A stretch of DNA of 64,000 bases, from assembly GCA_034933525.1 (NCBI GenBank), contig JAYFNI010000002.1:100433-164432 (forward strand), in the 5' to 3' direction. Of the stretch, positions 2,351 to 51,562 are shown in pieces (within the stretch, counting starts at the first letter, position 1; every line of letters starts with the position of its first letter). A program made the position numbers and the translations under genes. The stretch comes from Candidatus Fimivivens sp. GTDB lineage: Bacteria > Bacillota > Clostridia > Oscillospirales > Ruminococcaceae. The notes beneath the pieces are model-generated. The model was not told the DNA's origin and did no database searches. It saw only the letters and a list, made by a program, of their open reading frames with translations.

Positions 2351-4336
2351 GTGAGATTTAGAAAATTTATACTATTCACGTTGCTATGCTGGAGCATACT
2401 GTCCCCAAAAATATTGGCACTCGATACTGTGCTGCGCGTCGCAGTGAACCCCAATTTACCACCGTTTCAGATGCGCCAGAGAGATGGGCAGCTGGTCGGG
2501 CTGCACATTGACCTGATGAAAAGCATTGCCCAGCGCAATAACTATCTGGTGGAATACATCATCTGCGAAACAAATTCGGACTGCGAGCAGGCACTAAAAA
2601 ATGGGGAAGCCGATTTGATTTTAGGCGTGGTTCTGCCAGCTTCTTCAAGACAGGGGGATTCGCTCACGGCTGAAATATCGCGTTCTTCGCTGTGCATGAT
2701 CGCCCCACAATATAAAGCCAAGGGGCTGATGCCGGACAATGCCCTGGATGGCCATCGGGCGGTGTTTGAGAAAGGAACCATCGGATATTCGTTCATGTCA
2801 AGCCTTGGCAACCTTTCTTATCACGTGGTGGCTGACCAGATGCGGGTTTTTGAAGAGCTTTATCTGGGGGAATCTGACGTGGCAGTCGCGGTTAAAAGCA
2901 GCGCGGTATTTTTACTAAACGAAGCTGGAAAATCAGACGACTTTACAATTCTGCGCAACTATATGGTGCCGATTTCCTACACCATAAAGGTGGCACCGGG
3001 CAATAAGCAGCTGCGTGAGGAACTTGATGGCGGCATCGAATATCTTCGGGTGAACGGTGACTATAATCGCCTGTTTGATAAGTGGACCTTTGCGGAAAAG
3101 ACGAAGCCCTCAGCGCTTGATTATCTGCGTCAGTACTGGTATATCACCATTGGGCTGCCGCTTGTTCTGGGCTTTATCGGCTGGAACAATATACAAATGA
3201 ATAAAAAACTCAAATTGCAGGTGGCGGAAAAAACCTCCGAGCTGCAACAGACGAACGCAATGCTTGAACTGCGCCTGTTACAGATACAAAATGATGCCGA
3301 GGTGCAGCGCCGCATCATAGAAACCAGCCCGAACGCCATGCTGATTATCGACCCCGGCGGCATGATATTGATGCTGAATAAAAGCGCCTGCCAAATCATG
3401 GGCGTCACGCAGAACATGGTGGGTGAATCTATCAAAAAAATTGCGTTGTGTGAATTTTTGCTGCGTGAAAAATTTGAGCAAGTGATGAGTGGCGGGGGGT
3501 ACCCGAACGAAGTTAAAAAATATATCGGGAACGGGCACAGCTATCAATTTAGCATTTTCCCGCTTTATGAGCTTAACAGTATCAGCGGGGCGCTGCTCGA
3601 GGTCAGGGACATCACACGGGATATCAATGACGCGCAGCAATTATTAGAGCGTGAAAAAAGCCGCGTACTTAATCAGCTTGTGGCGGGTATTGCGCACGAG
3701 ATTAAGAACCCGTTGACCTCCATCAAAAATTTTGCAGTGCTTTTAAAGCGCAAAAAGGATAACCCCCAGTTCCAAGAGTCTTTTTCCACCATTGTGCCGC
3801 AGGAGGTGGAACGCATTAACCAGCTTGTCGAAAGTCTGATCGACTACGCCAGGCCGCACACAGCACAAAAAAGCGAAGTGCTGCTTGAAGAAATGGTACG
3901 CCCCTGCGTCTTTTTGGTCAAAGGAATGCGCTTTGCATCCTCAGTGGATTTTTGCGTGGAAATTCAGCCGGGACTGACGTTATTGGCTAACCCCAATCAA
4001 CTTAAACAGATCATCTTAAACCTGCTGCTAAACGCGGTGGAATCGCTTGAGCAGAAAAGCAAGCAATGCCCCGAGTTTATATCGAAGCTCAATATTCACG
4101 CGCTGTCAATGGGTGACGGTGCGGTGGTTCTGACGGTGGCGGATAACGGCATGGGTATGCCGCAGGACATTATTGACAAGGCTACCGAGCCATTTTTCAC
4201 AACAAAATCCACCGGAACCGGCATGGGGCTGGCGGTCACCCGCCAGTTCGTTGAAGAAAACAACGGTAAACTGGTTATTGATAGTGTTGAAATGCAGTTT
4301 ACCAGTGTAACAATCTATTTCGGGAGGTCGCTATGA
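2351..4336 (+). CDS. Sensor histidine kinase with extracellular amino-acid-binding (PBPb) domain, PAS, HisKA and HATPase
   Basis: Signal peptide, SBP3-like domain, TM helix, PAS, H-box AHEIKNPL, N-box NLLLNA, G boxes DNGMG and GTGMGL. Confidence 0.92.
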   Translation: MRFRKFILFTLLCWSILSPKILALDTVLRVAVNPNLPPFQMRQRDGQLVGLHIDLMKSIAQRNNYLVEYIICETNSDCEQALKNGEADLILGVVLPASSRQGDSLTAEISRSSLCMIAPQYKAKGLMPDNALDGHRAVFEKGTIGYSFMSSLGNLSYHVVADQMRVFEELYLGESDVAVAVKSSAVFLLNEAGKSDDFTILRNYMVPISYTIKVAPGNKQLREELDGGIEYLRVNGDYNRLFDKWTFAEKTKPSALDYLRQYWYITIGLPLVLGFIGWNNIQMNKKLKLQVAEKTSELQQTNAMLELRLLQIQNDAEVQRRIIETSPNAMLIIDPGGMILMLNKSACQIMGVTQNMVGESIKKIALCEFLLREKFEQVMSGGGYPNEVKKYIGNGHSYQFSIFPLYELNSISGALLEVRDITRDINDAQQLLEREKSRVLNQLVAGIAHEIKNPLTSIKNFAVLLKRKKDNPQFQESFSTIVPQEVERINQLVESLIDYARPHTAQKSEVLLEEMVRPCVFLVKGMRFASSVDFCVEIQPGLTLLANPNQLKQIILNLLLNAVESLEQKSKQCPEFISKLNIHALSMGDGAVVLTVADNGMGMPQDIIDKATEPFFTTKSTGTGMGLAVTRQFVEENNGKLVIDSVEMQFTSVTIYFGRSL

Positions 4337-5691
4337 AGCATCAAATTCTCGTCATAGACGATGAGCCAAACATTTGCCTGACCCTCAAAATGGCGTTGGA
4401 GGACGATTACGAGGTGTTTACCGCAAACACCGCCGAGCAGGGTTTAGAAATCGTGCAGTCAGAGGCCATTGCGCTTTGTCTGCTAGATCTGCGCATTGGC
4501 ACCGCCGACGGAATTGAGGTTTTAAAGCATATTAAAAGTCTCAATTCGCATATTGCCGTTGTCATGATAACGGCTTACGGCAGCATAAAGTCCTCGGTAA
4601 CAGCCATGAAAAGTGGCGCTTACGGCTATCTGACCAAACCGCTCGACCTTGACGAGCTGGGGCTGATCATGAATCAGGCGCTGGAGTTCAAGCAGCTAAA
4701 CGAAAAGGTTGAATATATGAGCGGCGCGCTTGAAACCCGCTTTGGCATGGGCGAAATCATTGGCAAAAGCGAGCCGATGCAAAAGCTCTATAAGCTGATC
4801 GACCGCATCAAGGACATTGATTCCAGCGTGATTATCACCGGCGAGAGCGGCACCGGAAAAGAGCTGGTGGCGCGGGCGCTTCATTTTAGCGGAAACCGTA
4901 AAAATGAACGCTTTGTAGAGGTAAACTGTGCCGCCATCCCCGAGGGGCTTTTGGAGGAGGAATTGTTCGGGCACAAGCGCGGCGCGTTCACCGGCGCAAT
5001 TTCGGACACCAAAGGCAAATTCGAATTTGCCGGAAAGGGAACCGTGTTTTTAGACGAAATTGGCGATATGCCGCTGAGCCTTCAAGCCAAGCTGCTTCGG
5101 GTATTACAGCAAAAAGAGGTTACGCCAATCGGTGAAACCCGCAAGGTTCCAGTCAGGGCGCGGGTCATTGCTGCCACTAACCGCGATATTAAGGCGCTGG
5201 TGGATGAGGGAAAGTTCCGGCAGGATCTTTATTTCCGATTAAACGTCATCGAGCTGCACATTCCGCCGCTGCGCGAGCGCAGGGGGGACATTCTAGATCT
5301 CGCGGCGCATTTTTTGAACAAAAACTGTACCCAGCTTAATAAACCCCCGATGCGCATCGAAAAAGGAGCGCAGCGCAGTCTTATGGAATATACTTACCCC
5401 GGCAACGTTCGGGAACTGGCTAATATGATTGAATATGCCGCCATTTTTGCAAACGGCGGTGAAATAACGGCGGAGGATTTACCTAAAAGAGCTGCTGGCG
5501 AAGCGCAAACCGCAATGCCTGAATTCGAAAGTATGACACTTAAAGAGATTGAACAAAAGGTGATTGCCATACGATTAAAAGCAAACGGCGGCAATATACG
5601 GATAACGGCCGAACAGCTTGGCGTCAGCGATAAGGGTCTGCGCAACAAGCTTGAACAGTCGCATATCAACTATAAGGAGCTTCAATCGTGA
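4333..5691 (+). CDS. Sigma54-dependent response regulator (NtrC/AtoC family)
   Basis: REC domain (IDDE, LLD), Walker A GESGTGKE, GAFTGA loop, C-terminal HTH; ATGA overlap with the kinase. Confidence 0.95.
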   Translation: MKHQILVIDDEPNICLTLKMALEDDYEVFTANTAEQGLEIVQSEAIALCLLDLRIGTADGIEVLKHIKSLNSHIAVVMITAYGSIKSSVTAMKSGAYGYLTKPLDLDELGLIMNQALEFKQLNEKVEYMSGALETRFGMGEIIGKSEPMQKLYKLIDRIKDIDSSVIITGESGTGKELVARALHFSGNRKNERFVEVNCAAIPEGLLEEELFGHKRGAFTGAISDTKGKFEFAGKGTVFLDEIGDMPLSLQAKLLRVLQQKEVTPIGETRKVPVRARVIAATNRDIKALVDEGKFRQDLYFRLNVIELHIPPLRERRGDILDLAAHFLNKNCTQLNKPPMRIEKGAQRSLMEYTYPGNVRELANMIEYAAIFANGGEITAEDLPKRAAGEAQTAMPEFESMTLKEIEQKVIAIRLKANGGNIRITAEQLGVSDKGLRNKLEQSHINYKELQS

Positions 5692-7232
5692 GGCGGTATC
5701 GTGCGCTGTGCTGTCTGCTGGTGATTGCAATTATGCTTGTTACGGGCTGCGGCGGCACAGACGCTGAACAGTTTGACATAACGCTCCCGCAGAAAAGTAC
5801 GGGGCAACCCCGCGACGAGATTGTGATTGCGACCAATCAGGATGTCACCTCCACCGACCCGCAGGCCGCCGACGAAATTGCCGCTGCCCGCGTATTTTAT
5901 CTGATTTATGACCGGCTGTTTAGCATCGACCCTTATACCGGCGAAATTTCGCCCTCGCTGGTTAAGTCTTATCTTCAAACGACCGATACGGTGTGGATTT
6001 TTTCCCTTCGGGACGATGTTTATTTCCACGATGGCAGCCGACTGACAGCGCAGGACGTCAAGTTTAGTCTGGAGCGGGCAAAGCATTCCGAGCGGGTTAA
6101 GGCGCAGCTTTCAACCTTGAAGGAGGTGCAGGCGCTTGACGACTTCACCGTCAAGGTGGTGTTAAATGAGCCTTATCAGCCCTTTTTAGCCAAGCTGTGC
6201 CTGACGGGTTGCAGCATTGTGAGCAAAGCAGCGGTTGAAAAAGACGGTGGGCGGTTCGAACCGATTGGCACAGGACCTTACCGGCTGACCGAATGGCGCG
6301 TCGGCGACCGCATTCTGCTTGAGCGGTTCGAGCACTACTTTGGCGGTACGTCGCCAACCCCGCGGCTGGTTATGCGCGCCATTCCCGACAATCAGGCGCG
6401 GTTGCACGCTCTCGAAACCGGCGAGATACAGGTGGCAGAGTGGCTGGATTCCGCCGACTTTGAAAAGATTATAGAAAACCCTGACCTGAAGCTTTTGCAG
6501 GTGCCGTCGGTGACGGTTGCCCACATTGCCCTTAACGTGACCAAGCCGCCGCTCAACAATGTGCTGGTCAGGCGGGCAATTGCACACGCCATAGACAAAG
6601 AAACGCTGGTCAGAGAGACGTTGCTTGGCAACGGGCGGGCGGCGACCACCGTTTTGGGGCCGGGCATCAGTGGCTACTATGACAAAATGGAAGGATTCCC
6701 CTATGACCCGCAGCAAGCTAAAAAGCTGCTGGCACAGGTCGGTTATCCCAACGGTTTTACGCTTGAACTGCTTACAGTACAGCCCGCGTTTGATTTTTGT
6801 CTGCCGCTGTTACAGCAAAATCTTGCCGATGTCGGCATTACGCTTAAAGTGGTGCCGCTCGATTCCACAACGTTTTTCAAAAAGATTAACGCGGGCGAGC
6901 AAATGGCGCATATCGGCACCTGGAACAACGTGATTCTGGACCCTGACAGAAGTGTGGACCCGTTTTATTCCCCAAACTTTGGCGCAGCCAGCAACCGGAT
7001 GCGCTATAAAAGCGCAAGGGTGGACGCGCTAATTGAACAAGGGCGCAGCGTTGCAGACGCGCAGACCCGCGCGGGAATTTACAGGGAGCTTCAGGAAATT
7101 GTGGTTTCGGACTGCCCGTGGGTGCCGCTTTATAGTACCAACACCACCGTTTGTGTTGCACGTGGTATCAGCGGATTTTCTCCGCACCCCGCCAACCAAC
7201 ACAATTATACAAAGATTCTAATGCGTGATTAA
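5688..7232 (+). CDS. Family 5 (peptide/nickel) solute-binding lipoprotein
   Basis: Lipobox VTGC; VYFHDGSRLTAQDVKFS and GTGPY motifs; GTGA overlap with the regulator stop. Confidence 0.9.
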   Translation: MRRYRALCCLLVIAIMLVTGCGGTDAEQFDITLPQKSTGQPRDEIVIATNQDVTSTDPQAADEIAAARVFYLIYDRLFSIDPYTGEISPSLVKSYLQTTDTVWIFSLRDDVYFHDGSRLTAQDVKFSLERAKHSERVKAQLSTLKEVQALDDFTVKVVLNEPYQPFLAKLCLTGCSIVSKAAVEKDGGRFEPIGTGPYRLTEWRVGDRILLERFEHYFGGTSPTPRLVMRAIPDNQARLHALETGEIQVAEWLDSADFEKIIENPDLKLLQVPSVTVAHIALNVTKPPLNNVLVRRAIAHAIDKETLVRETLLGNGRAATTVLGPGISGYYDKMEGFPYDPQQAKKLLAQVGYPNGFTLELLTVQPAFDFCLPLLQQNLADVGITLKVVPLDSTTFFKKINAGEQMAHIGTWNNVILDPDRSVDPFYSPNFGAASNRMRYKSARVDALIEQGRSVADAQTRAGIYRELQEIVVSDCPWVPLYSTNTTVCVARGISGFSPHPANQHNYTKILMRD

Positions 7233-24171: not shown

Positions 24172-25677
24172 TTACTTCAAAAGAGCGTTTACCCTTGCTT
24201 GAATCTCGCTGTAATTATACCCTGCGGCGGTCAATTTGTCTTTACGGGTTTGACCGTTTCCCCATTTACCCGCAATCACTTCTTTTGCGATTTCGTCAAT
24301 GGATTTCTGCGGGGTTTTGGGTACTTCCGCAACAGTCCCTTGAATCGTGCAATAGGACGGATTTTCAAGATAAATCCAACCAACACCGCTTTTCAGTCTA
24401 CCCCAACCATTGTTTACTTCAAGGATAGTGAAAACGCCTTTCCCGGTCTGTCCTTTGACCGCGCCGCTCATGGATGGTTCAGCCCGATAATTTAGGTCAG
24501 GAATGATAACCTGAACGGTGAAAGGAACAGACGGGAATTTTGACGCGGGGGTTTGTTCTGCGAATTTGTCAAAGTAAGTTTGCCCGTACCCGGCGCGTTT
24601 AACCTTGACTTCCTCGCCCATGTTGGCGGGACGTTCATATTCGCAAAGCACCACGTCGGACGCTTCACGAACGGACGTTGCGGTTTGCAGGGTCTTCATG
24701 ACGTTCGTGTAACCCTGCAATTCTTTCCAAAGGAAATTCAACTGCATGGACAGGTCACCAATCGACGCACCCGCCGCCTTTGCGAAATCAAGAAGGGCTT
24801 GCTTCCTGCTCCAAAAAGTCCATTGTGCCAAGCCATAACCCGCCGAATCCTTGACAAAATTATTATATGCCCCTTTGTCAACTGCGGCGGTATATTCTGC
24901 GTCATTCATCCCAAGTGATTTTTCATAGGTATTTTGCAGATTGTCCGGGCGTAAACCGCTTTCAGCGTACAAGTTACCCATGACCCCCGCAACAGCGCAA
25001 GCAGAAAGCCCCTTACCCGTCAGGAACGCCCAAATGCGCCCGTCTGCATCATCAGTAGGGGTAACCGTACCCCCGCCATCAGAAACGCCGCCTGACGCGT
25101 TCCCTGCGCCTATCAGCGCGGTTTTTACATCCTGCCTGAATTGATTCATGGTCAATCCAAACTTCGACCAAATATGTTCAACGTCGGCATGATTGGAAGC
25201 AATTCCGCGTTTACACCCTTCCGAATGGCTGATGATAACACCGTCAGCCAACGGGTCAAGTTTGAATTCGCCACAAAGGAACGCGAACAATTCAACCGCC
25301 GTTTTATATGTCCTCATGACAACGGTTTTGGTACTCGCCGGGTTATTGTCCACCCACGACGCGCCGCCTGTGTAGGTGATTGTTGCGGGTTCGCACATTT
25401 CAACGCCGATATGGGTATTGTTGCCGCTTCCATTCGCACCGCTTGCACAATGCCACCCGCGCCAATTCCACGGCAAAGTTTGAAATACATCGCCTGTGTT
25501 CCCGTCAATGAAGCCGTGAACAGCCTTTTCAACGCCTGATTTATTCCAACTGTTTACAAAGACTTCCGCTTTCGGTTGAGAACACCCCACCGAATGAAGC
25601 ATTAAGCCTTTGACGCTGATTTGACGATTTGCTTTGTAGCAATCGTTATTTTTCAGCAAACTTTCAATGATTTTCAT
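24172..25677 (-). CDS. Endolysin: amidase_2 + phage tail lysozyme-like + SH3-like + Cpl-7-type repeat
   Basis: LMLHSVG...HIGVEMCE...SH..H.D amidase; GVMGNLYAESG...YGLAQWT lysozyme; IAKEVIAGKWGNG Cpl-7-like end. Confidence 0.88.
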   Translation of the reverse strand: MKIIESLLKNNDCYKANRQISVKGLMLHSVGCSQPKAEVFVNSWNKSGVEKAVHGFIDGNTGDVFQTLPWNWRGWHCASGANGSGNNTHIGVEMCEPATITYTGGASWVDNNPASTKTVVMRTYKTAVELFAFLCGEFKLDPLADGVIISHSEGCKRGIASNHADVEHIWSKFGLTMNQFRQDVKTALIGAGNASGGVSDGGGTVTPTDDADGRIWAFLTGKGLSACAVAGVMGNLYAESGLRPDNLQNTYEKSLGMNDAEYTAAVDKGAYNNFVKDSAGYGLAQWTFWSRKQALLDFAKAAGASIGDLSMQLNFLWKELQGYTNVMKTLQTATSVREASDVVLCEYERPANMGEEVKVKRAGYGQTYFDKFAEQTPASKFPSVPFTVQVIIPDLNYRAEPSMSGAVKGQTGKGVFTILEVNNGWGRLKSGVGWIYLENPSYCTIQGTVAEVPKTPQKSIDEIAKEVIAGKWGNGQTRKDKLTAAGYNYSEIQARVNALLK

Positions 25678-26585: not shown

Positions 26586-26852
26586 TTATATCATCATTTC
26601 ATAGACTTCGACTAACGCAAGCTGTGTGTCGGTCAACTGCTGTTCGACAAGGGCGGTTTTCGCGTCCATCATGCGAATATATTCATCCTTGTCATACTGA
26701 ACCATGTCAAATTCAAACCCGTTGAACTCGCGTTCGCCGTCCGGGTCTGTTTCCACAATGGGCGTAATGTTGGAACAAACCCAAACGCTGAATTCATCAA
26801 TTTTCAGCGGTTCAGGCTTGACCGTGCTTCTCGTTCTGCCGTAATCAATCAT
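26586..26852 (-). CDS. Hypothetical phage protein (XkdW-like position), coupled to RT
   Basis: 88 aa; ATGA overlap with the RT stop. Confidence 0.6.
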   Translation of the reverse strand: MIDYGRTRSTVKPEPLKIDEFSVWVCSNITPIVETDPDGEREFNGFEFDMVQYDKDEYIRMMDAKTALVEQQLTDTQLALVEVYEMMI

Positions 26853-27901
26853 TTTCGTTTCACCCTTTCCTTGTAATATTGGTCTGCCGCGTCTCGAATC
26901 GGCGCAATGTATTTTTCCGAAAGGCGATGACTGTCACAATGACACAACCAACCCTTGTATGAATTGATAGCGCACCATTCGGAAAAAGTCATTTCCTTTC
27001 CCGCTGTCACCTTCTTTCTGATATTCACCATTTTCACTTTGAACTGTTTGCACGTTGATTTTCTCAACAGCGTATAGTTCAGGAACGTTCGATAACCGAC
27101 AAAATCAACGCCCCGAACGTAAGTAGGGAAGACTTGCCAGTTGTCTTTGATGGTCAATTTTAGGTTTACACGGAAATATTCATCAATTTCTTTCCGCAAG
27201 GCGTGAAGTTCAGCTTTGGAACTTGCGAAAATTACAATGTCATCCATGTACCTGAAATAATGCTTTATACGCTTGACTTCTTTAATCCAATGGTCAAAAT
27301 CGGATAAGTAGAAGTTCCCGGCGTACTGTGAAAAATAATTGCCTATGGGAATGCCTTTTTCGCCTTGTGTCGAATCAATAATTTCGTCCAACAGCCAAAG
27401 CAAATTATCATCTTTGAACAACCGTCTAAACTTTCGTTTCAAAACATCATGGTCAATGGACGGATAATACTTCTTTACGTCCAATTTTAGGCAGTATTGA
27501 CAACCCATAACGTCAGTTTGGACGGCGCATTTTAACTTGCGGAATGCCGCATGAATACCCCTTCCGGGAATAGCTGAATAGGTGTCAGCTGTCAGATTTT
27601 TAATTAAGAACGGTTCAATCACCTGTAAAATCGCCCATTGACAAACACGGTCAGGAAAATAGGGCAGTTTGAAAATCTCACGGGTTTTCGTTCCGTCCGT
27701 TTTCATGAAAGTCGTGTATTCCGACGTGTCATAGGTCTTGTTTATCAACATATTTTGAAGCGCGGTCAAATACCGTTCTTCATCGGCGTTCACGGCTTTT
27801 ACTTCTTCATACCAACCTTTTCCCTTTCTTGCGTTCGTGTGTGCCAATTTCAGATTTTCCATGTCATAAATCCGTTCATATAAATGCCCGTATCTAATCA
27901 C
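26849..27901 (-). CDS. DGR reverse transcriptase
   Basis: LKLDVKKYYPSI, GIPIGNYFSQ (DGR-type SQ), YFRYMDD; 350 aa with no maturase or endonuclease domain; adjacent TR. Confidence 0.95.
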   Translation of the reverse strand: MIRYGHLYERIYDMENLKLAHTNARKGKGWYEEVKAVNADEERYLTALQNMLINKTYDTSEYTTFMKTDGTKTREIFKLPYFPDRVCQWAILQVIEPFLIKNLTADTYSAIPGRGIHAAFRKLKCAVQTDVMGCQYCLKLDVKKYYPSIDHDVLKRKFRRLFKDDNLLWLLDEIIDSTQGEKGIPIGNYFSQYAGNFYLSDFDHWIKEVKRIKHYFRYMDDIVIFASSKAELHALRKEIDEYFRVNLKLTIKDNWQVFPTYVRGVDFVGYRTFLNYTLLRKSTCKQFKVKMVNIRKKVTAGKEMTFSEWCAINSYKGWLCHCDSHRLSEKYIAPIRDAADQYYKERVKRK

Positions 27902-28037
27902 GAAAAAACCTTCCTGTGTATGCAGTTTGTGACCGAACTTTCAACCTTTGAAATTAACTTTTCAAAGTCTACCAGTACAGTTTCAAATTCTTATTATGTT
28001 TTGCCATGTGGCAGGGTAAACAACACCGCGATATATT

Positions 28038-28071
28038 GAAACGGGCGGGGTATGATTTTCCCGCCCGTTTC
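28038..28071 (-). other. GC-rich hairpin immediately 3' of TR
   Basis: 12-bp perfect stem gaaacgggcggg/cccgcccgtttc, 10-nt loop. Confidence 0.75.
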
Positions 28072-28074
28072 TTG

Positions 28075-28201
28075 CATTTACTAACCGCCTGCTGATATTC
28101 CGATTACGATTCCCGACCGTATTATTCACATTCCAATAGAACTCACTCGCATTAGAACCATTATTCCAATTCGCACCTAACAGGGTAATTAAGAAACTAC
28201 C
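28075..28201 (-). repeat. DGR template repeat (TR)
   Basis: 127-nt gapless alignment to VR; 36 adenines including 11 AAT triplets; all 25 mismatches at TR adenines. Confidence 0.96.
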
Positions 28202-28290
28202 TTTTTTATAGGCACTTGATGGTTTTTCATGCGCGTGTGAATCGCGAATCAGCAGATGTTTGTTTACCCAAGTTCAAAGTGTTCATTTTT

Positions 28291-30354
28291 TTAAGGAACA
28301 TACACCAACCGCCCGCCGAGATGCCGATAACGATACCCGACCGTATCAGCCACATACCAATAGAACCCACCCGCACGAGAACCATAATACCAACCCGCAC
28401 CCAACAGGGCAAGTAAGAAACCACCCGCGTATTCGTTGTTCTGATAGAAATAATCACCCACGGGAAGATTGCTGTCACCAAGCGTTTCAGACGGGAAGAA
28501 CAGCCAATCAAAGGGTTCATTGTACGCCATCGCGGAAATATAACCGTTCTGCTTTGCAAGCGTGATTCCGGCATTTTTATAAGTTCCGTCTGTCTTGCTT
28601 TCGGCAAAAGCATTGTCCGCGACATATAATTCGTGGACGCTATACGGATAAATGTTCAAGCCGTCAACAAACTTCCAAATGTTACCCCACGGATTTTCTT
28701 CCCCGCGATAGGACACGGAACACTTACCAACTACACCCGGCGCATTTCCCGACGCGTTACCAAGTGAAGACGTGCCGCCTGTGAGAATTGACATATTGGT
28801 TGAACCGTCATCGGTATTATCCACGTTGCCGCGCCCAATCAGATTTTGAACGTTGAAGCCGCCGTATTCCACAATCATTAAAAGTTGTGTAGCGGCTGAA
28901 ATCGCGCCGTATTCCTGTGACCAACTCGCGCCCCGGTTCTCGGCAAGAATGCCGCAATTTCGACGGGTCAAATTCTGTGTTAATCCCGAAATCGGCTTTG
29001 CATTTGCAATAGACGATAATTTATCACCCGTGGAAGCCGTGAAATCTGCAATTTGCGCGTCATTCGTAATATAATCATTCGCGGAAGAATCCCATAAGCA
29101 CCCTTCATACGCGCCAATCAGAACATAATTCTTTTCTACGCCGTTTTTGATGAAGGCGGGATGTACTTTGAACCCTGCTTTCTGCGTCATGGACACATAA
29201 TAACGGGCTTTTCTCATGTGGAAGCCTTTACCGATTGAACCAGTTGTGTTTTTCGTTACGGTTGCAGTTACGCCTGTTGAACCACCGCTGAATATTGCGG
29301 TTGCTTTAGTCCCCGCTTCATTCGCTGTAAACGTCACATTCGCACCCGTGCCGCCTGTTATCCATCCTGCATAAACTGCCGCCCTGATTTTGGTTGCAAC
29401 AGCTTCAACGCTGTCACCCGCCGCAACAGCCACATTAAACGCCGTACCCGCAAGCGTGATAGTCACATTTCCCGCCGATGTTGCCGCGCCCGTCACGCTG
29501 ATTGTGTCAACCTCTTTAATTGCTATTTTTTCAAGTGTAAGGGGAACAACCTTGTAATAAAATTTCGGCTGATAAACCATGACTTGAACAATCGTTCCGA
29601 TTGCGTATGTCGTGCCGTCTTTTATTACCGCCTGTGTCAATTTGCCCGTTTCGGTGTAAGCAGAATCCCCGTACCACGCCACAATAACGCCCGTGTCTGT
29701 GACGTTGCACCGCTTACGACCGCCAAAGCATTCAATCCCGTCGAACATCGCGCCGGGGGTCTTGTTCAAAGCACCCGCAAGCCGCTTGAAGGTTCTATTT
29801 TGGAAATCAGCTTCAAGCCCGTAAATGTTTGCTTCGGTGTACCCGACATAAGATTGAATATCCGAAATTTGAGAATAGATTTCATCTAAGTCACCAACCG
29901 TCGCAACAGCGGCGGGGTCAACTTCCAAAGTTACGCTTGAAGCGTTGCCGACGCTGATGACCAGTTCAAATTTAATACCCGTACTGGTTACGCCGTTGAA
30001 CGCGGGGATATAGTCAGCTTGACCGTTCACGATGGTCACACCATAAAGAATTTCCCCTTCGTCGGGGTCAATCGCATAAACGCCCACGGTTTGGCAGGAA
30101 TAACCCGCCACAAGGGAAGCGTTATTGATTGCCCCTTCAATCTTGATTGCCGTGCCGTTTGTCCGCGTGACTTTACTGACAAGCGTGGTTTGCTTCACGT
30201 TTGCCAAAGCGGTTAAGGCTTCAAGCTGTCCCGCCGTGTAAATCTGTGAAGATGTGTTGATTTTGGTGAATTGGATATTGCCAACCCCCGCCATCATTTT
30301 AGCCATCAACGCTTGACCTTTGCCCGTGATGACTACGTTTTGAAATTGTGCCAT
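28291..30354 (-). CDS. Tail fibre/receptor-binding protein, DGR target (C-type-lectin-like C-terminus)
   Basis: Tail-collar-like N-terminus (VVITGKGQALMAK), RGEENPWGNIWKFVDG and terminal GGRL typical of CLec-fold DGR targets; contains VR. Confidence 0.9.
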   Translation of the reverse strand: MAQFQNVVITGKGQALMAKMMAGVGNIQFTKINTSSQIYTAGQLEALTALANVKQTTLVSKVTRTNGTAIKIEGAINNASLVAGYSCQTVGVYAIDPDEGEILYGVTIVNGQADYIPAFNGVTSTGIKFELVISVGNASSVTLEVDPAAVATVGDLDEIYSQISDIQSYVGYTEANIYGLEADFQNRTFKRLAGALNKTPGAMFDGIECFGGRKRCNVTDTGVIVAWYGDSAYTETGKLTQAVIKDGTTYAIGTIVQVMVYQPKFYYKVVPLTLEKIAIKEVDTISVTGAATSAGNVTITLAGTAFNVAVAAGDSVEAVATKIRAAVYAGWITGGTGANVTFTANEAGTKATAIFSGGSTGVTATVTKNTTGSIGKGFHMRKARYYVSMTQKAGFKVHPAFIKNGVEKNYVLIGAYEGCLWDSSANDYITNDAQIADFTASTGDKLSSIANAKPISGLTQNLTRRNCGILAENRGASWSQEYGAISAATQLLMIVEYGGFNVQNLIGRGNVDNTDDGSTNMSILTGGTSSLGNASGNAPGVVGKCSVSYRGEENPWGNIWKFVDGLNIYPYSVHELYVADNAFAESKTDGTYKNAGITLAKQNGYISAMAYNEPFDWLFFPSETLGDSNLPVGDYFYQNNEYAGGFLLALLGAGWYYGSRAGGFYWYVADTVGYRYRHLGGRLVYVP
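28299..28425 (-). repeat. DGR variable repeat (VR)
   Basis: Encodes GGFLLALLGAGWYYGSRAGGFYWYVADTVGYRYRHLGGRLVY at the target C-terminus. Confidence 0.96.
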
Positions 30355-30370: not shown

Positions 30371-31072
30371 CTAAATTTGGTATTCAGTCACGACAACCGC
30401 CGCGCTTTTATTGGAAGCTGAACCATTTGCGGAAACGACTGTTTCAAAGTCATTCGTAATAAGTTCAACTTTTGTTTGAACAAGCGTTGAACCGTGTACG
30501 GCTATACCGTTCACACCGTATGTGTCAGAAAAATCATTCGTAACCATGTAAATCATCGTCGGAATGATTGCCGAACCAATACGCGCTTGACCGTTTGCAC
30601 GACATTCAAGGGCGTTTGTCGAAATTATAATCAGGTTCGCCGGGATGACTGATTGAATAAGGTATTTCAAATTGTCAACCCCGCCGATTTCCCCGATGTG
30701 GGTTATCAACTCCATTTCATATTCGGTGAAGTTGGTGTTCAGTTCAAAATTATCACCGAACAGATTTGTCAGCATATTTATAAACGCTGTCAATGTGTAC
30801 GGTAATCGCTCATTCAACCGAATCAGGATTTTAGTTTTTCGTGCGTCAAGTGAATCCGTCGCTTTAGGGATAATTCCAAGAATCGTTTCCCACCGCTTCA
30901 CGCCATATTCAGTTGATGTTTCAACGAATTGGTTATTAAGGGCGTTTTGAATTTCATTGAACAAATTAAAAATTTCCGGCTGTTCACCATAGGTCAAGGC
31001 TTTATACTGTTTGACCTCTTTCAAAACCGTGGGAACGTAACCAATCAAAGGGCGGTCTTCGTAATTAGACAT
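30371..31072 (-). CDS. Baseplate protein (YmfQ/XkdU-like)
   Basis: GVKRWETILGI...LDARK motif; position after baseplate J. Confidence 0.75.
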   Translation of the reverse strand: MSNYEDRPLIGYVPTVLKEVKQYKALTYGEQPEIFNLFNEIQNALNNQFVETSTEYGVKRWETILGIIPKATDSLDARKTKILIRLNERLPYTLTAFINMLTNLFGDNFELNTNFTEYEMELITHIGEIGGVDNLKYLIQSVIPANLIIISTNALECRANGQARIGSAIIPTMIYMVTNDFSDTYGVNGIAVHGSTLVQTKVELITNDFETVVSANGSASNKSAAVVVTEYQI

Positions 31073-32165
31073 TGCTCACCGTCCCCCTAACTGGTATAGA
31101 ATTTACGCCAAGTTTTAAGTTTTGGGCTTGACTGTTCAACGTGGTATTTTCTACGTCAAGAATGCCCGTTACTCCTAAAAAACGCGTTTCAATTTGGCTG
31201 ATTCTCACGGTCAACGTTGCGGCGGGGTCATTGCGCCAATCAACAGCGTCCCATTCTTCCGCAAGTTCTGTAAAATAATCGTCAATCGCCTGTTCGACAT
31301 AAGGTTTAACGGCGTTCCAATCCCAACCACTTTCAAAAGTCAAGTGTGTTGCGACATTTACCGTTTCCCCGGTTACTCCCTGAACCGTAACAGTATGACC
31401 AATCGGCGCAACCCCCAACCCCAAGCCTTGATTTTGTATCGGGTCAATGGCTGTTTGTACTGCGTCAATTAGTACGGGGGATGGAACTTGAAATTGGGTA
31501 TTCAAAATGACCAATTTCACCGTGCCGCCGCCATTCCATACGGGATAAACTTTCACGCCACCCACCCCGGCAAGGGCAAGGGTCTTTTCAATGTAATCCT
31601 GAATATTGCCGCCATACGCTTGCATTTGTAAACTGTTATAATAGCGTTGTCGCAAATGTTCCGTTGCTTCTTCGTCTTCACCCGGAATAAGAATATCCGT
31701 CAGAATTGCGGTTGTCAGTCCTTCAACGTAATCGTTGGGAACAAGGTCACCACTTTCAAGATTTCCAACTACCCCCGCCGTTTCACAACGTAATTCAAAA
31801 GCATTGGCTTCAATCTTCGTTATAACCTTGTAATTTAACAGGTTCAACGAAAAAACTGAACCAATTGGAACGTCAATATTGAATTCACCCCGACGAATTG
31901 CAAATGTTGCGGGTTCAACAATGATTCCACGTTCTTTACATCGACGAATGAGAAAATCGCGGGTTTGTGTGTCCGCGAATGATTCATTCAGAACTTCACT
32001 AAGTTCAATATACATCTGTTGCATTTCAAGCGCGGCGGGGGAAAGGGCGGTTCTAATCAACGAACCTTCACGCGTGTCAATGGTTATTCCGCGTTCACGC
32101 GCCCATTCATCAACGCTATCCAACATTCTTTGTAAAATTATTTGACTTGTCTGATTCTCAAACAT
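31065..32165 (-). CDS. xkdT: Baseplate J-like protein
   Basis: DTREGSLI, GEDEE..E.LRQRY, GGNIQDY, APIGHTVTV motifs. Confidence 0.88.
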   Translation of the reverse strand: MFENQTSQIILQRMLDSVDEWARERGITIDTREGSLIRTALSPAALEMQQMYIELSEVLNESFADTQTRDFLIRRCKERGIIVEPATFAIRRGEFNIDVPIGSVFSLNLLNYKVITKIEANAFELRCETAGVVGNLESGDLVPNDYVEGLTTAILTDILIPGEDEEATEHLRQRYYNSLQMQAYGGNIQDYIEKTLALAGVGGVKVYPVWNGGGTVKLVILNTQFQVPSPVLIDAVQTAIDPIQNQGLGLGVAPIGHTVTVQGVTGETVNVATHLTFESGWDWNAVKPYVEQAIDDYFTELAEEWDAVDWRNDPAATLTVRISQIETRFLGVTGILDVENTTLNSQAQNLKLGVNSIPVRGTVSNV

Positions 32166-32566
32166 TAGATATTCACCCCCTTTTGAATTAGTACATCGCC
32201 GTAAATTGTCCGTGCTGTGAAGTTGACTGTCAACTTTCCCTTACCAACTTCAAATTCAAAATTGTCAACGGCTTCAATTCGTGCGTCTTGTAACAACGCT
32301 TCGGAAATACGCCGCTTTACTTCCGGGATAACCCACGAAATTGGCATTCCGAAAAGTTCATCAAATTCAACCCCGTAATTCCATGAAAAAATAACCCATT
32401 GGAAACGTTCAGTTCCAAGGGTTAAGTAAATCGCTTGTTTTATTGCGTCCTGCTCGTCGGTCATCCCTAACACAACGTTATTGTCAATGTCCAGTCTGAA
32501 CGTATAGCTTGAAGGTTCAACAAATTCAATGTCATTGTTCAAAATAGAACTTGTGGACGGTATCAT
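32165..32566 (-). CDS. xkdS: Baseplate wedge protein (XkdS/gp25-like)
   Basis: IKQAIYLTLGTERF, YGVEF, RRISEALLQDARI. Confidence 0.8.
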   Translation of the reverse strand: MIPSTSSILNNDIEFVEPSSYTFRLDIDNNVVLGMTDEQDAIKQAIYLTLGTERFQWVIFSWNYGVEFDELFGMPISWVIPEVKRRISEALLQDARIEAVDNFEFEVGKGKLTVNFTARTIYGDVLIQKGVNI

Positions 32567-46539: not shown

Positions 46540-48028
46540 TTGGGTCACCGCCCTTCGTTGGATCATTTCCCGGCTGTGTTCCGGGGAACTGATTAGCGTA
46601 TTCGTCAATCGCGGCTTGTTTCTGTTCCTTAATTCGTTTCAATTCGGCTTGAACATCATCAACCCACGGATGGTTCGCCACAAGTGTTTCATCGGACAGA
46701 ATACCGACTGAACCTTTGATGTTAGTGATAATATCCGATTCAGAAATCAACATATCGCGGTTGAAGATAATTTCAAAAGGGTTACCCTCAAAGTCACCCG
46801 CGCCCGTGTTCGCCAAGTGAAGGTTGATGAAGTATACCAATTCTTCAAAAGACGCTTGATATTCGGTTTCCATTTCGTTAGCGTCAAGGTCAATGTCTGA
46901 ATACATGGACAGAATGTTCAATTGGTTCGCGTTACCGCCTAACCTGTCATCCTTCGCGTCATAACCCATAGCGTTTTCAATGATTGCTTTTTTGAAAATC
47001 TCCAAAATCGCTTTGTAGTTTTCTGCGTTGACCTCAACTTGAAGGGTTCGTAAATCACCCGGCGCACCATCAACCGTTTTCAGCTTCACCGCGCCATAAG
47101 TGGCAAGGTTATTTCGGAATTCGGCTAAATTCTCGCCGTCATAGTTGACCAACACAAGGATTGTATTCCGTGCGTCTTCTTCCATATTATTTTGGAAGTT
47201 AGACAAGATTAAATTAAGTCCGTCCTGCAATGACTTGACATTGCGAATCAGCGGGATTTCTTCGCTATTGTACTTGAACGGAATCAAAGGAATCCGCGAC
47301 CAGTTAAAAGCCTGTTCACCGTTGCCGTCTGTGACCGTGAAATATGGTTCGTGGGGCTTCTCGTCAGGGGTCAGGCGGCTTCCGTCCAAGATAAACCGGG
47401 AAATTCCCGTTTCGTGGTAGACTTCGACCTTCTGAACCGTCTTTTCGGTTCGTCCCTCAAAAGCGATGACCTCATAAATCCGAATAGCATAGTCAAGAAC
47501 CGTGTGTTCCTCGTCCTTCCACCCTGCAATGATTTCATAAGGATGTAACCGCTTGAAAACGAATTCGCCTTGTTCGTTGTAATAACAGAACAGCCAACCA
47601 ATACCACCGTTCAAAGAATCCCGCCCGACGTTCTTCAATAACCGCAAGAACTTTTTGTCAAAGAACAATTTCAGGGTCTTCATGTACCCGTCATTGTCTG
47701 ACTTTACGGAAAGCGGCTGTCCAAGAAGATAATTGGTCTTTTGGTTGACCATTTTCTTATACTGATTATCCACAATGCGGTTGTTCGGTAAGTTCTTCAC
47801 GGTTTCAAGTTCGCCGTTCTTTCCAATCATTGTTCTTTGACGATGAAGAATGTCATGTTGTCCCCGGAAGTAGTTTTCACCGTCAATCATGTCTTTGCGA
47901 CGTTTGGACGCAAGAAAGCGTTGAATTTCCGTGACAATATATTCTTCGTCCGTCAAACGGTTCTTCGCGCCTTGCGCGATGATTTCATTGATTTCGTCGG
48001 TAATGAAGTTAAATCGAAACAAGGTCAA
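46514..48028 (-). CDS. Portal protein, SPP1 gp6-like
   Basis: IPLIPFKYNSEE, MYSDIDLDAN, S.ET....HPWVDD. Confidence 0.9.
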   Translation of the reverse strand: MTLFRFNFITDEINEIIAQGAKNRLTDEEYIVTEIQRFLASKRRKDMIDGENYFRGQHDILHRQRTMIGKNGELETVKNLPNNRIVDNQYKKMVNQKTNYLLGQPLSVKSDNDGYMKTLKLFFDKKFLRLLKNVGRDSLNGGIGWLFCYYNEQGEFVFKRLHPYEIIAGWKDEEHTVLDYAIRIYEVIAFEGRTEKTVQKVEVYHETGISRFILDGSRLTPDEKPHEPYFTVTDGNGEQAFNWSRIPLIPFKYNSEEIPLIRNVKSLQDGLNLILSNFQNNMEEDARNTILVLVNYDGENLAEFRNNLATYGAVKLKTVDGAPGDLRTLQVEVNAENYKAILEIFKKAIIENAMGYDAKDDRLGGNANQLNILSMYSDIDLDANEMETEYQASFEELVYFINLHLANTGAGDFEGNPFEIIFNRDMLISESDIITNIKGSVGILSDETLVANHPWVDDVQAELKRIKEQKQAAIDEYANQFPGTQPGNDPTKGGDPNDQSGGES

Positions 48029-50399: not shown

Positions 50400-50666
50400 T
50401 CTTGAACCCGTACATCTTGAACCGGGTTAAACCCGCATAGTATAAGGATTTTTATTATTGAGCGGTTCAAGTTCAAGGTCTTTCCCTTATTCTTATATAT
50501 TTAGCCTTTTTCATTTTCAAAAATGAAAGTATGCTATTCTTGCATAAGAAAGTAAAAACATCTTGACCATCTTGAACTGCACCCCGAAAAATCAGTAATA
50601 GCGCGGGTTTGAAGCGGTTCAAGATTAAAAAATTAACCTTGAACCATCTTGAACCGACCATGAACC
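50399..50666. repeat. Iteron-like ATCTTGAACC array with two ~65-nt inverted arms around an AT-rich core (candidate origin)
   Basis: About 10 copies or variants, in both orientations, between 50399 and 50666. Confidence 0.6.
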
Positions 50667-51562
50667 AAATATTTTTCTGCCATGCTCAACAATCCCCGAA
50701 TATACGGTAACCGCGCAATCTGTTTCAACCATTCACCGGGGATTGCACCTTCACCATACTTCAACCCTGCCAAGCCGCCCGTGATAGCCGCTATCGTGTC
50801 CGTGTCCCCGCCAAGGTTTACCGCTGTCAATACTGCGTCCCGGTAATTGTCCGTCGTGATAAAACACCACAACGCGGCTTCCAAGGTATCAATCACATAG
50901 CCCGTTGATTTGATTTCGTCCCGCGTCAACTCACCAATGCGCAGAATCCGGGCGAATGCTCCCGTAGGGTCACCCCTGAAAGTGATTAAACTGTATGCCG
51001 ATTTCAACCAGTCATCAACGCCACGATTCAAGGTGTCAACCATTTCAACGAAAAATTCACACGCCAACAGGTTCAATTCATGTCCGTGGGTCAGGGCGGC
51101 ATATTCACGGGTAACCTGTAATTTGTCTGTAATATCCAAAGGCAGAAACGCAAGGGGCAACATTCGCATAAGCGCACCGTTCCCATTATCGTATTCACCG
51201 TTCAACCCCCACGGCTTAACGCCATCCACAAAATTTGTAATCGCCCTTTTCGTTGTATTTCCCACATCAAAGACTTTTTCATACGGCGTGAAGTGTCCAC
51301 CAAATAACCAGTCCGAAAAGTTCACCATACATTGATAAGGTTCAGGCTGTTTCCAGTCTGCTAAATTTTCAATCGTCGCAAGGGTCATTGACGTGTCATC
51401 GCTCCACGTTCCGGGCGGCTGATTATGCGTCCCGAACCCGCGCATATCAACAACAGGATTTTCATCAAGTTCAACGCGGGTTTTGAACTCCACGGGAACA
51501 CCCAAAGCGTCACCTACAATGAAGCCAAGCACCGCGTCAGTTAGTTTTGTTTTTCTAGCCAT
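50633..51562 (-). CDS. ADP-ribosylglycohydrolase (DraG/ARH family)
   Basis: GDALG, WSDDTSM, GNGALMR, TH, GYVIDTLEAA, GGDTDT metal-binding motifs. Confidence 0.92.
   Translation of the reverse strand: MARKTKLTDAVLGFIVGDALGVPVEFKTRVELDENPVVDMRGFGTHNQPPGTWSDDTSMTLATIENLADWKQPEPYQCMVNFSDWLFGGHFTPYEKVFDVGNTTKRAITNFVDGVKPWGLNGEYDNGNGALMRMLPLAFLPLDITDKLQVTREYAALTHGHELNLLACEFFVEMVDTLNRGVDDWLKSAYSLITFRGDPTGAFARILRIGELTRDEIKSTGYVIDTLEAALWCFITTDNYRDAVLTAVNLGGDTDTIAAITGGLAGLKYGEGAIPGEWLKQIARLPYIRGLLSMAEKYLVHGRFKMVQG

Follow-up and report, generated by a model that had tools for sequence, protein, structure and literature searches.

In the diversity-generating retroelement (DGR) of Bordetella phage BPP-1, which is organised as mtd-avd-TR-brt, the reverse transcriptase (RT), bRT, requires the accessory protein Avd. 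Accessory-less DGRs of architecture A (TR-RT, where TR is the template repeat) account for 29% of the DGRs in a curated set and have been suggested to work by a mechanism independent of Avd (PMC5758913). DGRs adjoining tail genes are also described for temperate Oscillospiraceae/Ruminococcaceae phages, for example those of Faecalibacterium, in which the targets are Mtd-like and activity was deduced from adenine-specific variation among cognate genomes (PMC11792537). The locus compared here with these systems lies on contig JAYFNI010000002.1 of Candidatus Fimivivens sp. (assembly GCA_034933525.1), in a stretch of 64,000 nucleotides (nt), from here on the window, to which coordinates refer unless another locus is named. 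It consists of a tail-fibre gene with the variable repeat (VR), a gap of 97 nt, the TR, a spacer of 173 nt and the RT, with fibre gene, VR, TR, spacer RNA and RT all encoded on the minus strand. There is high confidence that this element is an intact accessory-less DGR that diversifies the tail fibre of an Oscillospiraceae prophage with a PBSX-like contractile tail.

With BPP-1 the element shares a tail-fibre target whose VR is found at the C-terminus of a C-type-lectin-type domain, a TR that precedes the RT and is separated from it by a structured spacer (RT-10 there, RT-17 here; PMC5737381), adenine-only differences between TR and VR, stop-proof codons, and a GC-rich initiation of mutagenic homing (IMH) element set against IMH*. 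The RT is homologous to bRT over the full length, with R74, I181, IGxxxSQ and YMDD being kept. Unlike BPP-1, the window element has no avd and no GC-rich inverted repeat after the IMH, its spacer RNA belongs to another Rfam family, AAT codons take the place of AAC, at scaffold positions with G in the VR the TR has additional adenines, and the host is a Gram-positive anaerobe. A reading made from the letters of the window alone (the sequence-only reading) had seen in the locus the signature of BPP-1; the DGR features, including the A-only mismatches and the RT, are upheld, but the architecture is not that of BPP-1. It is the known accessory-less type A1, with neither the avd gene nor the inverted repeat of the BPP-1-type architecture B. 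Gene order, a single adjacent target, association with a phage and the lack of avd, HRDC, MSL and CH1 are common to the A1 DGRs of Wu et al. 2018 (PMC5758913) and the window cassette; that set contained 75 members, whereas thousands of RTs approximately 70% identical to the window RT are now present in public metagenomes. The Faecalibacterium phage DGRs, for their part, belong to another phage and another host.

Template and Variable Repeats

The TR (28075-28201; 127 nt) is composed of 36 A, 40 T, 36 G and 15 C, and the VR (28299-28425) takes up the 42 codons with which the fibre gene closes, bar the terminal V-P; the GC content is 40% in the TR versus 55% in the VR. Aligned with each other on the minus strand, the two repeats match over 127 nt with 0 gaps and 25 mismatches. 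All 25 fall on TR adenines (14 A>G, 6 A>T, 5 A>C), and the non-A positions are identical throughout (91/91). The probability that 25 random mismatches would all be located on the 36 adenines is 3.0e-18. This alignment, its restriction to adenines and the split of the mismatch types had already been reported in the sequence-only reading and were reproduced by realignment and recomputation; that both copies have to be read on the minus strand was not mentioned there. In an independent repeat search, the TR/VR pair was retrieved as the longest direct repeat. The homology stops sharply at both ends; in the TRs of relatives, the 5' homology begins about 3-4 nt further in than in the window TR.

The VR opens with a complete codon, and 5 nt lie between its end and the TAA stop codon of the fibre gene, the open reading frame (ORF) of which, with 687 amino acids (aa) and including the stop codon, extends 8 nt past the VR. 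The VR is in frame within the target ORF and stop-free, and the TR adenines occupy mainly codon positions 1 and 2. Read in the VR frame, the TR begins with GGT AGT TTC TTA ATT ACC and includes 11 AAT codons, and enumeration of all A substitutions yielded no reachable stop codon, which agrees with what had been claimed from the letters. A search for extra VRs had also been proposed there; a scan of both strands of the window with the TR adenines masked returned this single VR and no second one.

IMH-Like Elements and Accessible Diversity

For a view across the clade, 123 distinct related TR/VR pairs were mapped onto the window TR. Variation is confined to the TR-A columns, the non-A columns being essentially always identical. 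Within the last 21 aligned nt, five TR/VR differences are fixed across the clade, that is, they are the same in 80-99% of the 123 pairs; they include the synonymous pairs TTA/TTG and GTA/GTG as well as AAT/TAT. The block comprises the sequence TCGGCGGGCGGTTGGTGTATG at the 3' end of the VR (28299-28319, minus strand), which begins with a GC-rich run, and TCAGCAGGCGGTTAGTAAATG at the 3' end of the TR (28075-28095, minus strand). The published description of IMH and IMH* fits this block (PMC5758913), and it would be expected from its sequence that the last 21 nt behave as an IMH/IMH* pair. The sequence-only reading had placed an IMH/IMH*-like element where the alignment breaks at the 3' end; the element itself is retained, but it corresponds to the last 21 aligned nt and not simply to the break.

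Among the adenines of the window TR, 25 are found in hypervariable columns, in which all four bases are seen, and 11 in columns with a near-invariant VR, 6 of the latter lying in the last 21 nt. At the mismatched adenines of TR positions 16, 24, 55 and 59 (counted from 28201), nearly every relative has a VR with G. The window mismatches are divided into 16 at hypervariable adenines (6 G, 5 C, 5 T) and 9 at fixed ones, and the diversified core of the VR extends over approximately 28320-28422 (minus strand). Two earlier statements have to be revised on these grounds. The 25 changes had all been ascribed to mutagenesis, but five of them are fixed IMH/IMH* differences and four more are located at G-fixed adenines; and the theoretical space of 4^36 variants is reduced, since only 25 adenines are hypervariable, to an accessible space of about 4^25 = 1.1e15 DNA variants or 3e14 peptides.

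The Diversified Tail Fibre

The DGR target is encoded at 28291-30354 on the minus strand (687 aa) and comes after the genes of baseplate J (31065-32165) and of a Mu gp48-like protein (30371-31072), both on the minus strand. PHROG 5302 ("tail protein") matches aa 373-687 of the fibre (7e-132), PHROG 7037 ("tail fiber") matches its N-terminus, and the tail-collar fibre N-terminal domain PF12571 matches aa 6-150 at 23.0 bits. These matches, together with the place after the baseplate genes, confirm the prophage tail-fibre target that had been proposed from the sequence. More than 6,700 homologues of the fibre have a conserved C-terminal scaffold, LGGxWxxxSxxGGFxWxVxxxSSxRxRxxGGRLVYVP, in which x denotes hypervariable residues.

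A C-type-lectin-like fold is predicted for the C-terminal domain carrying the VR (28294-29238, minus strand; aa 373-687). The fold prediction that the sequence-only reading had advised was carried out with AlphaFold2 and resulted in a monomer model of the fibre with a mean predicted local distance difference test score of 83.5 and a predicted TM-score of 0.71. The best match of this model among PDB structures in Foldseek is TaqVP, the DGR variable protein of Thermus aquaticus (5vf4; E 1e-9, probability 1.0, target-normalised TM-score 0.47), while Mtd (1yu2) is a weak match. TaqVP is likewise a DGR variable protein with a C-type-lectin fold; unlike the window protein it is no phage fibre, and identity between the two is 16-17% with no detectable sequence relationship. 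The match would most likely belong to the VR-bearing C-terminal domain of the modelled fibre. There is no Pfam C-type-lectin match on the fibre, and a profile search against PDB sequences returned no relative of the fibre family; it is through the predicted monomer model that the variable protein is assigned a C-type-lectin fold.

The middle of the fibre (aa ~269-373, window 29238-29550) matches the tail-sheath PHROG phrog_165. In the model this part resembles stretches of ~105-120 residues from sheath and baseplate complexes of the Agrobacterium phages Milano and 7-7-1, at 25-30% identity, and it appears to be a decorative domain common to sheath and fibre proteins.

Reverse Transcriptase and Accessory-Less Architecture

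The RT gene (26849-27901, minus strand) starts with GTG, is preceded by the ribosome-binding site AGGAAGG at 27909-27915 and encodes 350 aa. Its ORF is intact and contains the motifs IGNYFSQ (corresponding to [I/V/L]GxxxSQ of DGR RTs) and YMDD, in accordance with the intact ORF with YMDD and SQ that had been noticed earlier. RVT_1 of Pfam (7e-17) and PHROG 1423 (3e-126) are matched, and the best PDB match, over the full length, is 8ub7_A (E 8e-30), which, judged by the chain numbering (IGSLTSQ = I181-Q187), is BPP-1 bRT. R74 and I181, for which a promoting effect on adenine mutagenesis has been shown, have conserved equivalents in the window RT. The closest RT in deposited phage genomes is that of Psychrobacillus phage Perkons (55% identity), and a chromosome of F. 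prausnitzii contains the same arrangement with an RT that is 58% identical.

No PF05635 match indicative of avd was obtained among the 30 window ORFs scanned. The gaps of 97 nt and 173 nt are too small for the gene of a basic four-helix-bundle protein of 110-130 aa such as Avd, and avd is therefore not part of the cassette; the VR-TR spacer (28202-28298, minus strand; 97 nt) holds the fibre stop codon (28291-28293) and no Avd-sized ORF. The 152 related loci compared were taken from named Bacillota genomes (80), viral contigs (80) and a small number of other sources, and the layout VR, gap of 50-180 nt, TR, gap of 110-270 nt, RT is found in 128 of them. Annotated Avd genes occur in more distant phage DGRs (ACA1). 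The window element is an ordinary member of a large, known and already catalogued accessory-less clade, tail-fibre DGRs of gut Clostridia being known as well.

A locus at 2892-6026 of Caudoviricetes sp. vir215, whose host is assigned to Methanomassiliicoccales, combines PHROG 5302 and PHROG 1423 in an Avd-less cassette with an adenine-specific TR/VR pair. As this gut archaeal virus carries the same arrangement, the cassette type spans bacterial and archaeal viruses.

Structured RNA in the TR-RT Spacer

The spacer between TR and RT contains the structured RNA RT-17 (RF03020; 27916-28018, minus strand), which is matched over the full length of the model with 66.8 bits versus a gathering score of 40.4 (E 7e-11); the match ends 15 nt upstream of the RT start. 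On the minus strand it is made up of helix P1 (28002-28013), the long-range helix P2 (27974-27981 with 27932-27939), the variable hairpin P3 (27946-27967) and the conserved sequence UGCAUACA (27917-27924). RNAalifold recovered P1 and P2 from 75 relatives, with compensatory changes in 8 of 11 pairs; among the P1 variants of relatives are UGCC/GGCA, UACC/GGUA and UGGC/GCCA. Eight further loci of the clade reach the Rfam gathering score, and the threshold is missed by the more distant Avd-less phage DGRs Perkons, cr55_1, fEV-1 and vir215.

In the work of Weinberg et al. 2017, only RT-10, from the TR-RT spacer of BPP-1, was tied to a DGR; a similar role of the other motifs was speculated upon, and the function of RT-17 was left open (PMC5737381). 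As in that description, the window RNA is a full-model match immediately upstream of an RT gene; unlike there, it is situated within the TR-RT spacer of a definite DGR. RT-17 evidently plays the role of the DGR TR-RT spacer, as RT-10 does in BPP-1. The conserved start of RT-17 was also considered as a promoter, with a -35/-10-like match at 28020-27993; this is less likely than an RNA hairpin, given that the stem covaries and that promoter-like matches are at chance level.

Starting 5 nt after the TR, there is a GC-rich hairpin with an 11-bp stem (28039-28070, minus strand). It has counterparts in about half of the relatives, in the same place and with unrelated sequences, and it looks like a terminator on both strands.

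Weighing the Assignment

Several observations count against the assignment of the element as an intact, fibre-diversifying DGR, or call for caution with it. For the target, the PF12571 score on the fibre N-terminus equals precisely the cutoff, and the Foldseek output came without aligned residue ranges for the TaqVP match. For the mechanism, there is no recognised accessory gene and BPP-1 bRT needs Avd, which implies that the biochemistry of BPP-1 is not simply transferable; in the region, matches resembling promoters or terminators do not exceed chance. Decay of the DGR is seen in relatives, in the form of a TR remnant (L092) and a truncated RT (L138), and the only other contig encoding the same fibre protein has an identical VR. 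Finally, no GC-rich inverted repeat after the VR (28202-28298) was reported in the repeat search, a feature which downstream of the IMH is present in only 34% of DGRs (PMC5758913).

The identical VR and the decay bear on the explanation that survives best beside an intact and presumably firing DGR, although it is unlikely: the element would be a fossil, its parts intact but no longer firing, and the VR would be a frozen record. The unchanged VR of the second contig would fit this, as would the related phages that lost RT or TR (L092, L138) or have neither (L111, L132, L144). Of L092 a TR fragment only is preserved (L092:3227-3430), and L138 keeps TR, spacer RNA and the first ~27 RT codons (L138:2784-3288). 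Against a fossil speaks the complete identity of TR and VR at the 91 non-A positions, compared with a positional divergence of 6% from the closest relative, L001, in the rest of the fibre gene; this argues for recent copying and suggests, as far as sequence comparison can tell, that the window copy would have homed recently. RT ORF, catalytic motifs, spacer RNA and IMH/IMH* pair are moreover all intact. In the relatives, non-A substitutions of the TR are mirrored in their own VRs, and 11 groups of loci with an identical TR carry 2-9 distinct VRs, differing almost only at TR adenines before A/T. From the different VRs found with identical TRs it follows that the clade is active in nature, and this ongoing turnover is again at odds with a frozen record. 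Searched as DNA at near identity, the cassette had no match among GenBank phages; an exact search with 39 nt of the TR yielded 0 species-representative genomes, one viral contig and one short metagenome contig without the VR region (L006).

Less probable still is the idea that a new accessory protein replaces Avd, for which the ORF following the RT would be the candidate. This ORF (26586-26852, minus strand) encodes an acidic protein of 88 aa with an isoelectric point (pI) of 4.1 and belongs to PHROG 18126, of unknown function; neither a tblastn search against phage genomes nor a Pfam search of the family gave a match. It would be translationally coupled to the RT, its start overlapping the RT stop codon by 4 nt (ATGA), and a member of its family is the next gene after the RT in 82 of 86 loci from genomes, where RT identity goes as low as 50%, and in 70 of 80 from viruses. 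In L111, L132 and L144 (gap of 3-34 nt) as well as in L107 and L108 (113 nt), however, the gene stands right after the fibre gene, with no TR or RT present. The PBSX tail module has the order xkdV-xkdW-xkdX with a small gene after the fibre gene, and in PBSX-like tail modules it is this small post-fibre gene whose place the 88-aa ORF holds; BalMu-1 is annotated with XkdS/XkdT. The CH1 accessory of Avd-less DGRs is small and acidic, too, but it comprises 160-169 aa, and the pI of 4.1 differs from the ~9.5 of the nucleic-acid-binding Avd proteins (PMC5758913). Being found directly after RT-less fibre genes, the 88-aa gene is to be regarded as part of the phage backbone and marks the downstream edge of the insert. 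TR, spacer and RT of the accessory-less DGR are a 1.5-kb insert that can be lost. The empty sites are located at L111:4369-4386, L132:3462-3495, L144:4684-4686 and L107:4888-5000, and the fibre has a VR-like C-terminus there.

That the RT would derive from a group II intron, a retron or a defence-associated RT (DRT)/abortive infection (Abi) system, with the repeat being an unrelated duplication, can practically be dismissed: the weak NCBIfam matches (TIGR04416 for group II intron RT/maturase, 102.6 bits with a curated cutoff of 300; Drt3a, 69.7 versus 200; retron St85, 45.8 versus 235; Drt2, also far under its curated cutoff) and the label "retron-type" on RT homologues in some databases are set against a DGR bRT as the full-length best solved relative, the motif IGxxxSQ and not QGxxxSP, RT-17 as the sole RT-linked Rfam RNA in the window, where intron and retron RNA families were not found, and adenine-only mismatches, which an ordinary duplication cannot give.

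A Regularity Among the Template Adenines

Across the pairs, the base written in the VR tends to go with the base that follows the TR adenine. Of 516 cases with an adenine before G, 97% show G in the VR; for adenines before C the share is 75%. At synonymous A/G third positions the counts are G 168, A 3 and T 1 when the next base is G, and A 69, G 35, C 4 and T 1 when it is T; GCA before G becomes GCG in 56/56 cases and TTA before G becomes TTG in 85/89. At least 17 alignment columns exhibit this always-G behaviour. The randomised adenines are found in AAT, TAT and ATC codons, and the G-written ones in scaffold codons for Gly, Ala, Arg, Leu and Val. The pattern is kept at four-fold-degenerate sites and among VRs derived from one identical TR, and protein-level selection is therefore not its cause. 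Perkons, cr55_1 and fEV-1 show it as well; the remaining six phage DGRs examined in which a TR/VR pair was detected, among them VP58.5 and ACA1 with Avd, have a TR that simply keeps G at the scaffold positions.

The non-diversifying adenines account for approximately one third of the TR adenines; the pattern is seen at TR positions 16, 24, 55, 59 and 82 of the window and in loci L002-L168.

It is tentatively proposed, with somewhat less than even confidence, that the TR of the Avd-less clade carries a two-class adenine code, in which adenines before A/T would be randomised and those before G, and mostly those before C, would be written as G. The cause would have to be one of three: RT fidelity programmed by position or context, editing of the template RNA, or a bias in the repair of the homing intermediate. 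The always-G pattern does not follow from the context effects published for BPP-1 bRT (~30% misincorporation, mostly A to G), and no description of the regularity was found in the literature.

A pure 3'-neighbour rule is supported only in part; AGT in hypervariable columns keeps A in 4/9 cases, and ACA contexts behave normally. From these exceptions it is concluded that the alignment column matters to the effect no less than the sequence context does. A to C changes in AC contexts, which the slippage model proposed for BPP-1 ("template re-use") predicts, are not seen. Repair of a resident G by a G-T or MutY-type pathway would, by reasoning only, make G absorbing at hypervariable sites, and this was not observed.

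Proposed Course of Diversification

If the homologous BPP-1 is taken as the model, the RT would bind an RNA that extends across TR and RT-17 spacer and whose boundaries are likewise taken from that homology. The RT would then copy the TR into cDNA, faithfully except opposite adenines, again as in BPP-1. The cDNA would replace the VR up to the GC-rich 3' IMH, and the TR would be protected because it carries the divergent IMH*. The product would be a conserved C-type-lectin-like scaffold displaying ~15 randomised residues, 10 of which correspond to AAT codons with 15 possible amino acids each. With ~3e14 possible fibre tips, the phage would presumably be able to follow changes of the receptor. 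The ligand of the fibre is probably a host receptor, and tropism switching by this phage may be assumed by analogy.

How an Avd-free DGR RT works has been a question since the survey of 2018 (PMC5758913). With TR, a spacer of about 100-270 nt and RT in ~1.5 kb, placed between the fibre gene and the gene after it, and with relatives that have or lack the insert, the minimal system of the clade is convenient for addressing it. The orphan Rfam motif RT-17 is now placed in the TR-RT spacer of a definite DGR, where BPP-1 has its priming spacer (RT-10). The non-diversifying third of the adenines bears on estimates of DGR sequence space and on how synthetic templates are designed, and suggests an as yet undescribed fidelity rule.

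Prophage Context

Upstream of the fibre gene, the genes of baseplate J and the Mu gp48-like protein are accompanied by that of a sheath initiator (32165-32566, minus strand), and the further upstream prophage genes comprise sheath, tube, tape measure, portal, terminase and replication functions. Downstream of the 88-aa ORF there follow a CD1375-like small gene, holin-like genes and then an amidase/lysozyme endolysin (24172-25677, minus strand). Just past the endolysin start host genes, which encode proteins with 90% identity or more to those of Oscillospiraceae isolates and metagenome-assembled genomes.

The Mu F-like head morphogenesis protein of the prophage (816 aa; 43727-46177, minus strand) ends with an ADP-ribosyltransferase exoenzyme domain (PF03496, 8e-21), and the same prophage encodes an ADP-ribosylglycohydrolase (PF03747, 5e-67; 50633-51562, minus strand). 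The two may constitute a phage-delivered toxin domain and its reversing enzyme. A small ORF at 46210-46608 (minus strand) matches PF18909 (8e-26), the N-terminal domain of dATP/dGTP diphosphohydrolases; this family has been connected with manipulation of the nucleotide pool in phages. The ORFs scanned included no PurZ-like gene. Among the replication genes of the prophage there is an ORF resembling NUMOD4/HNH_3 homing endonucleases (59616-59954, minus strand).

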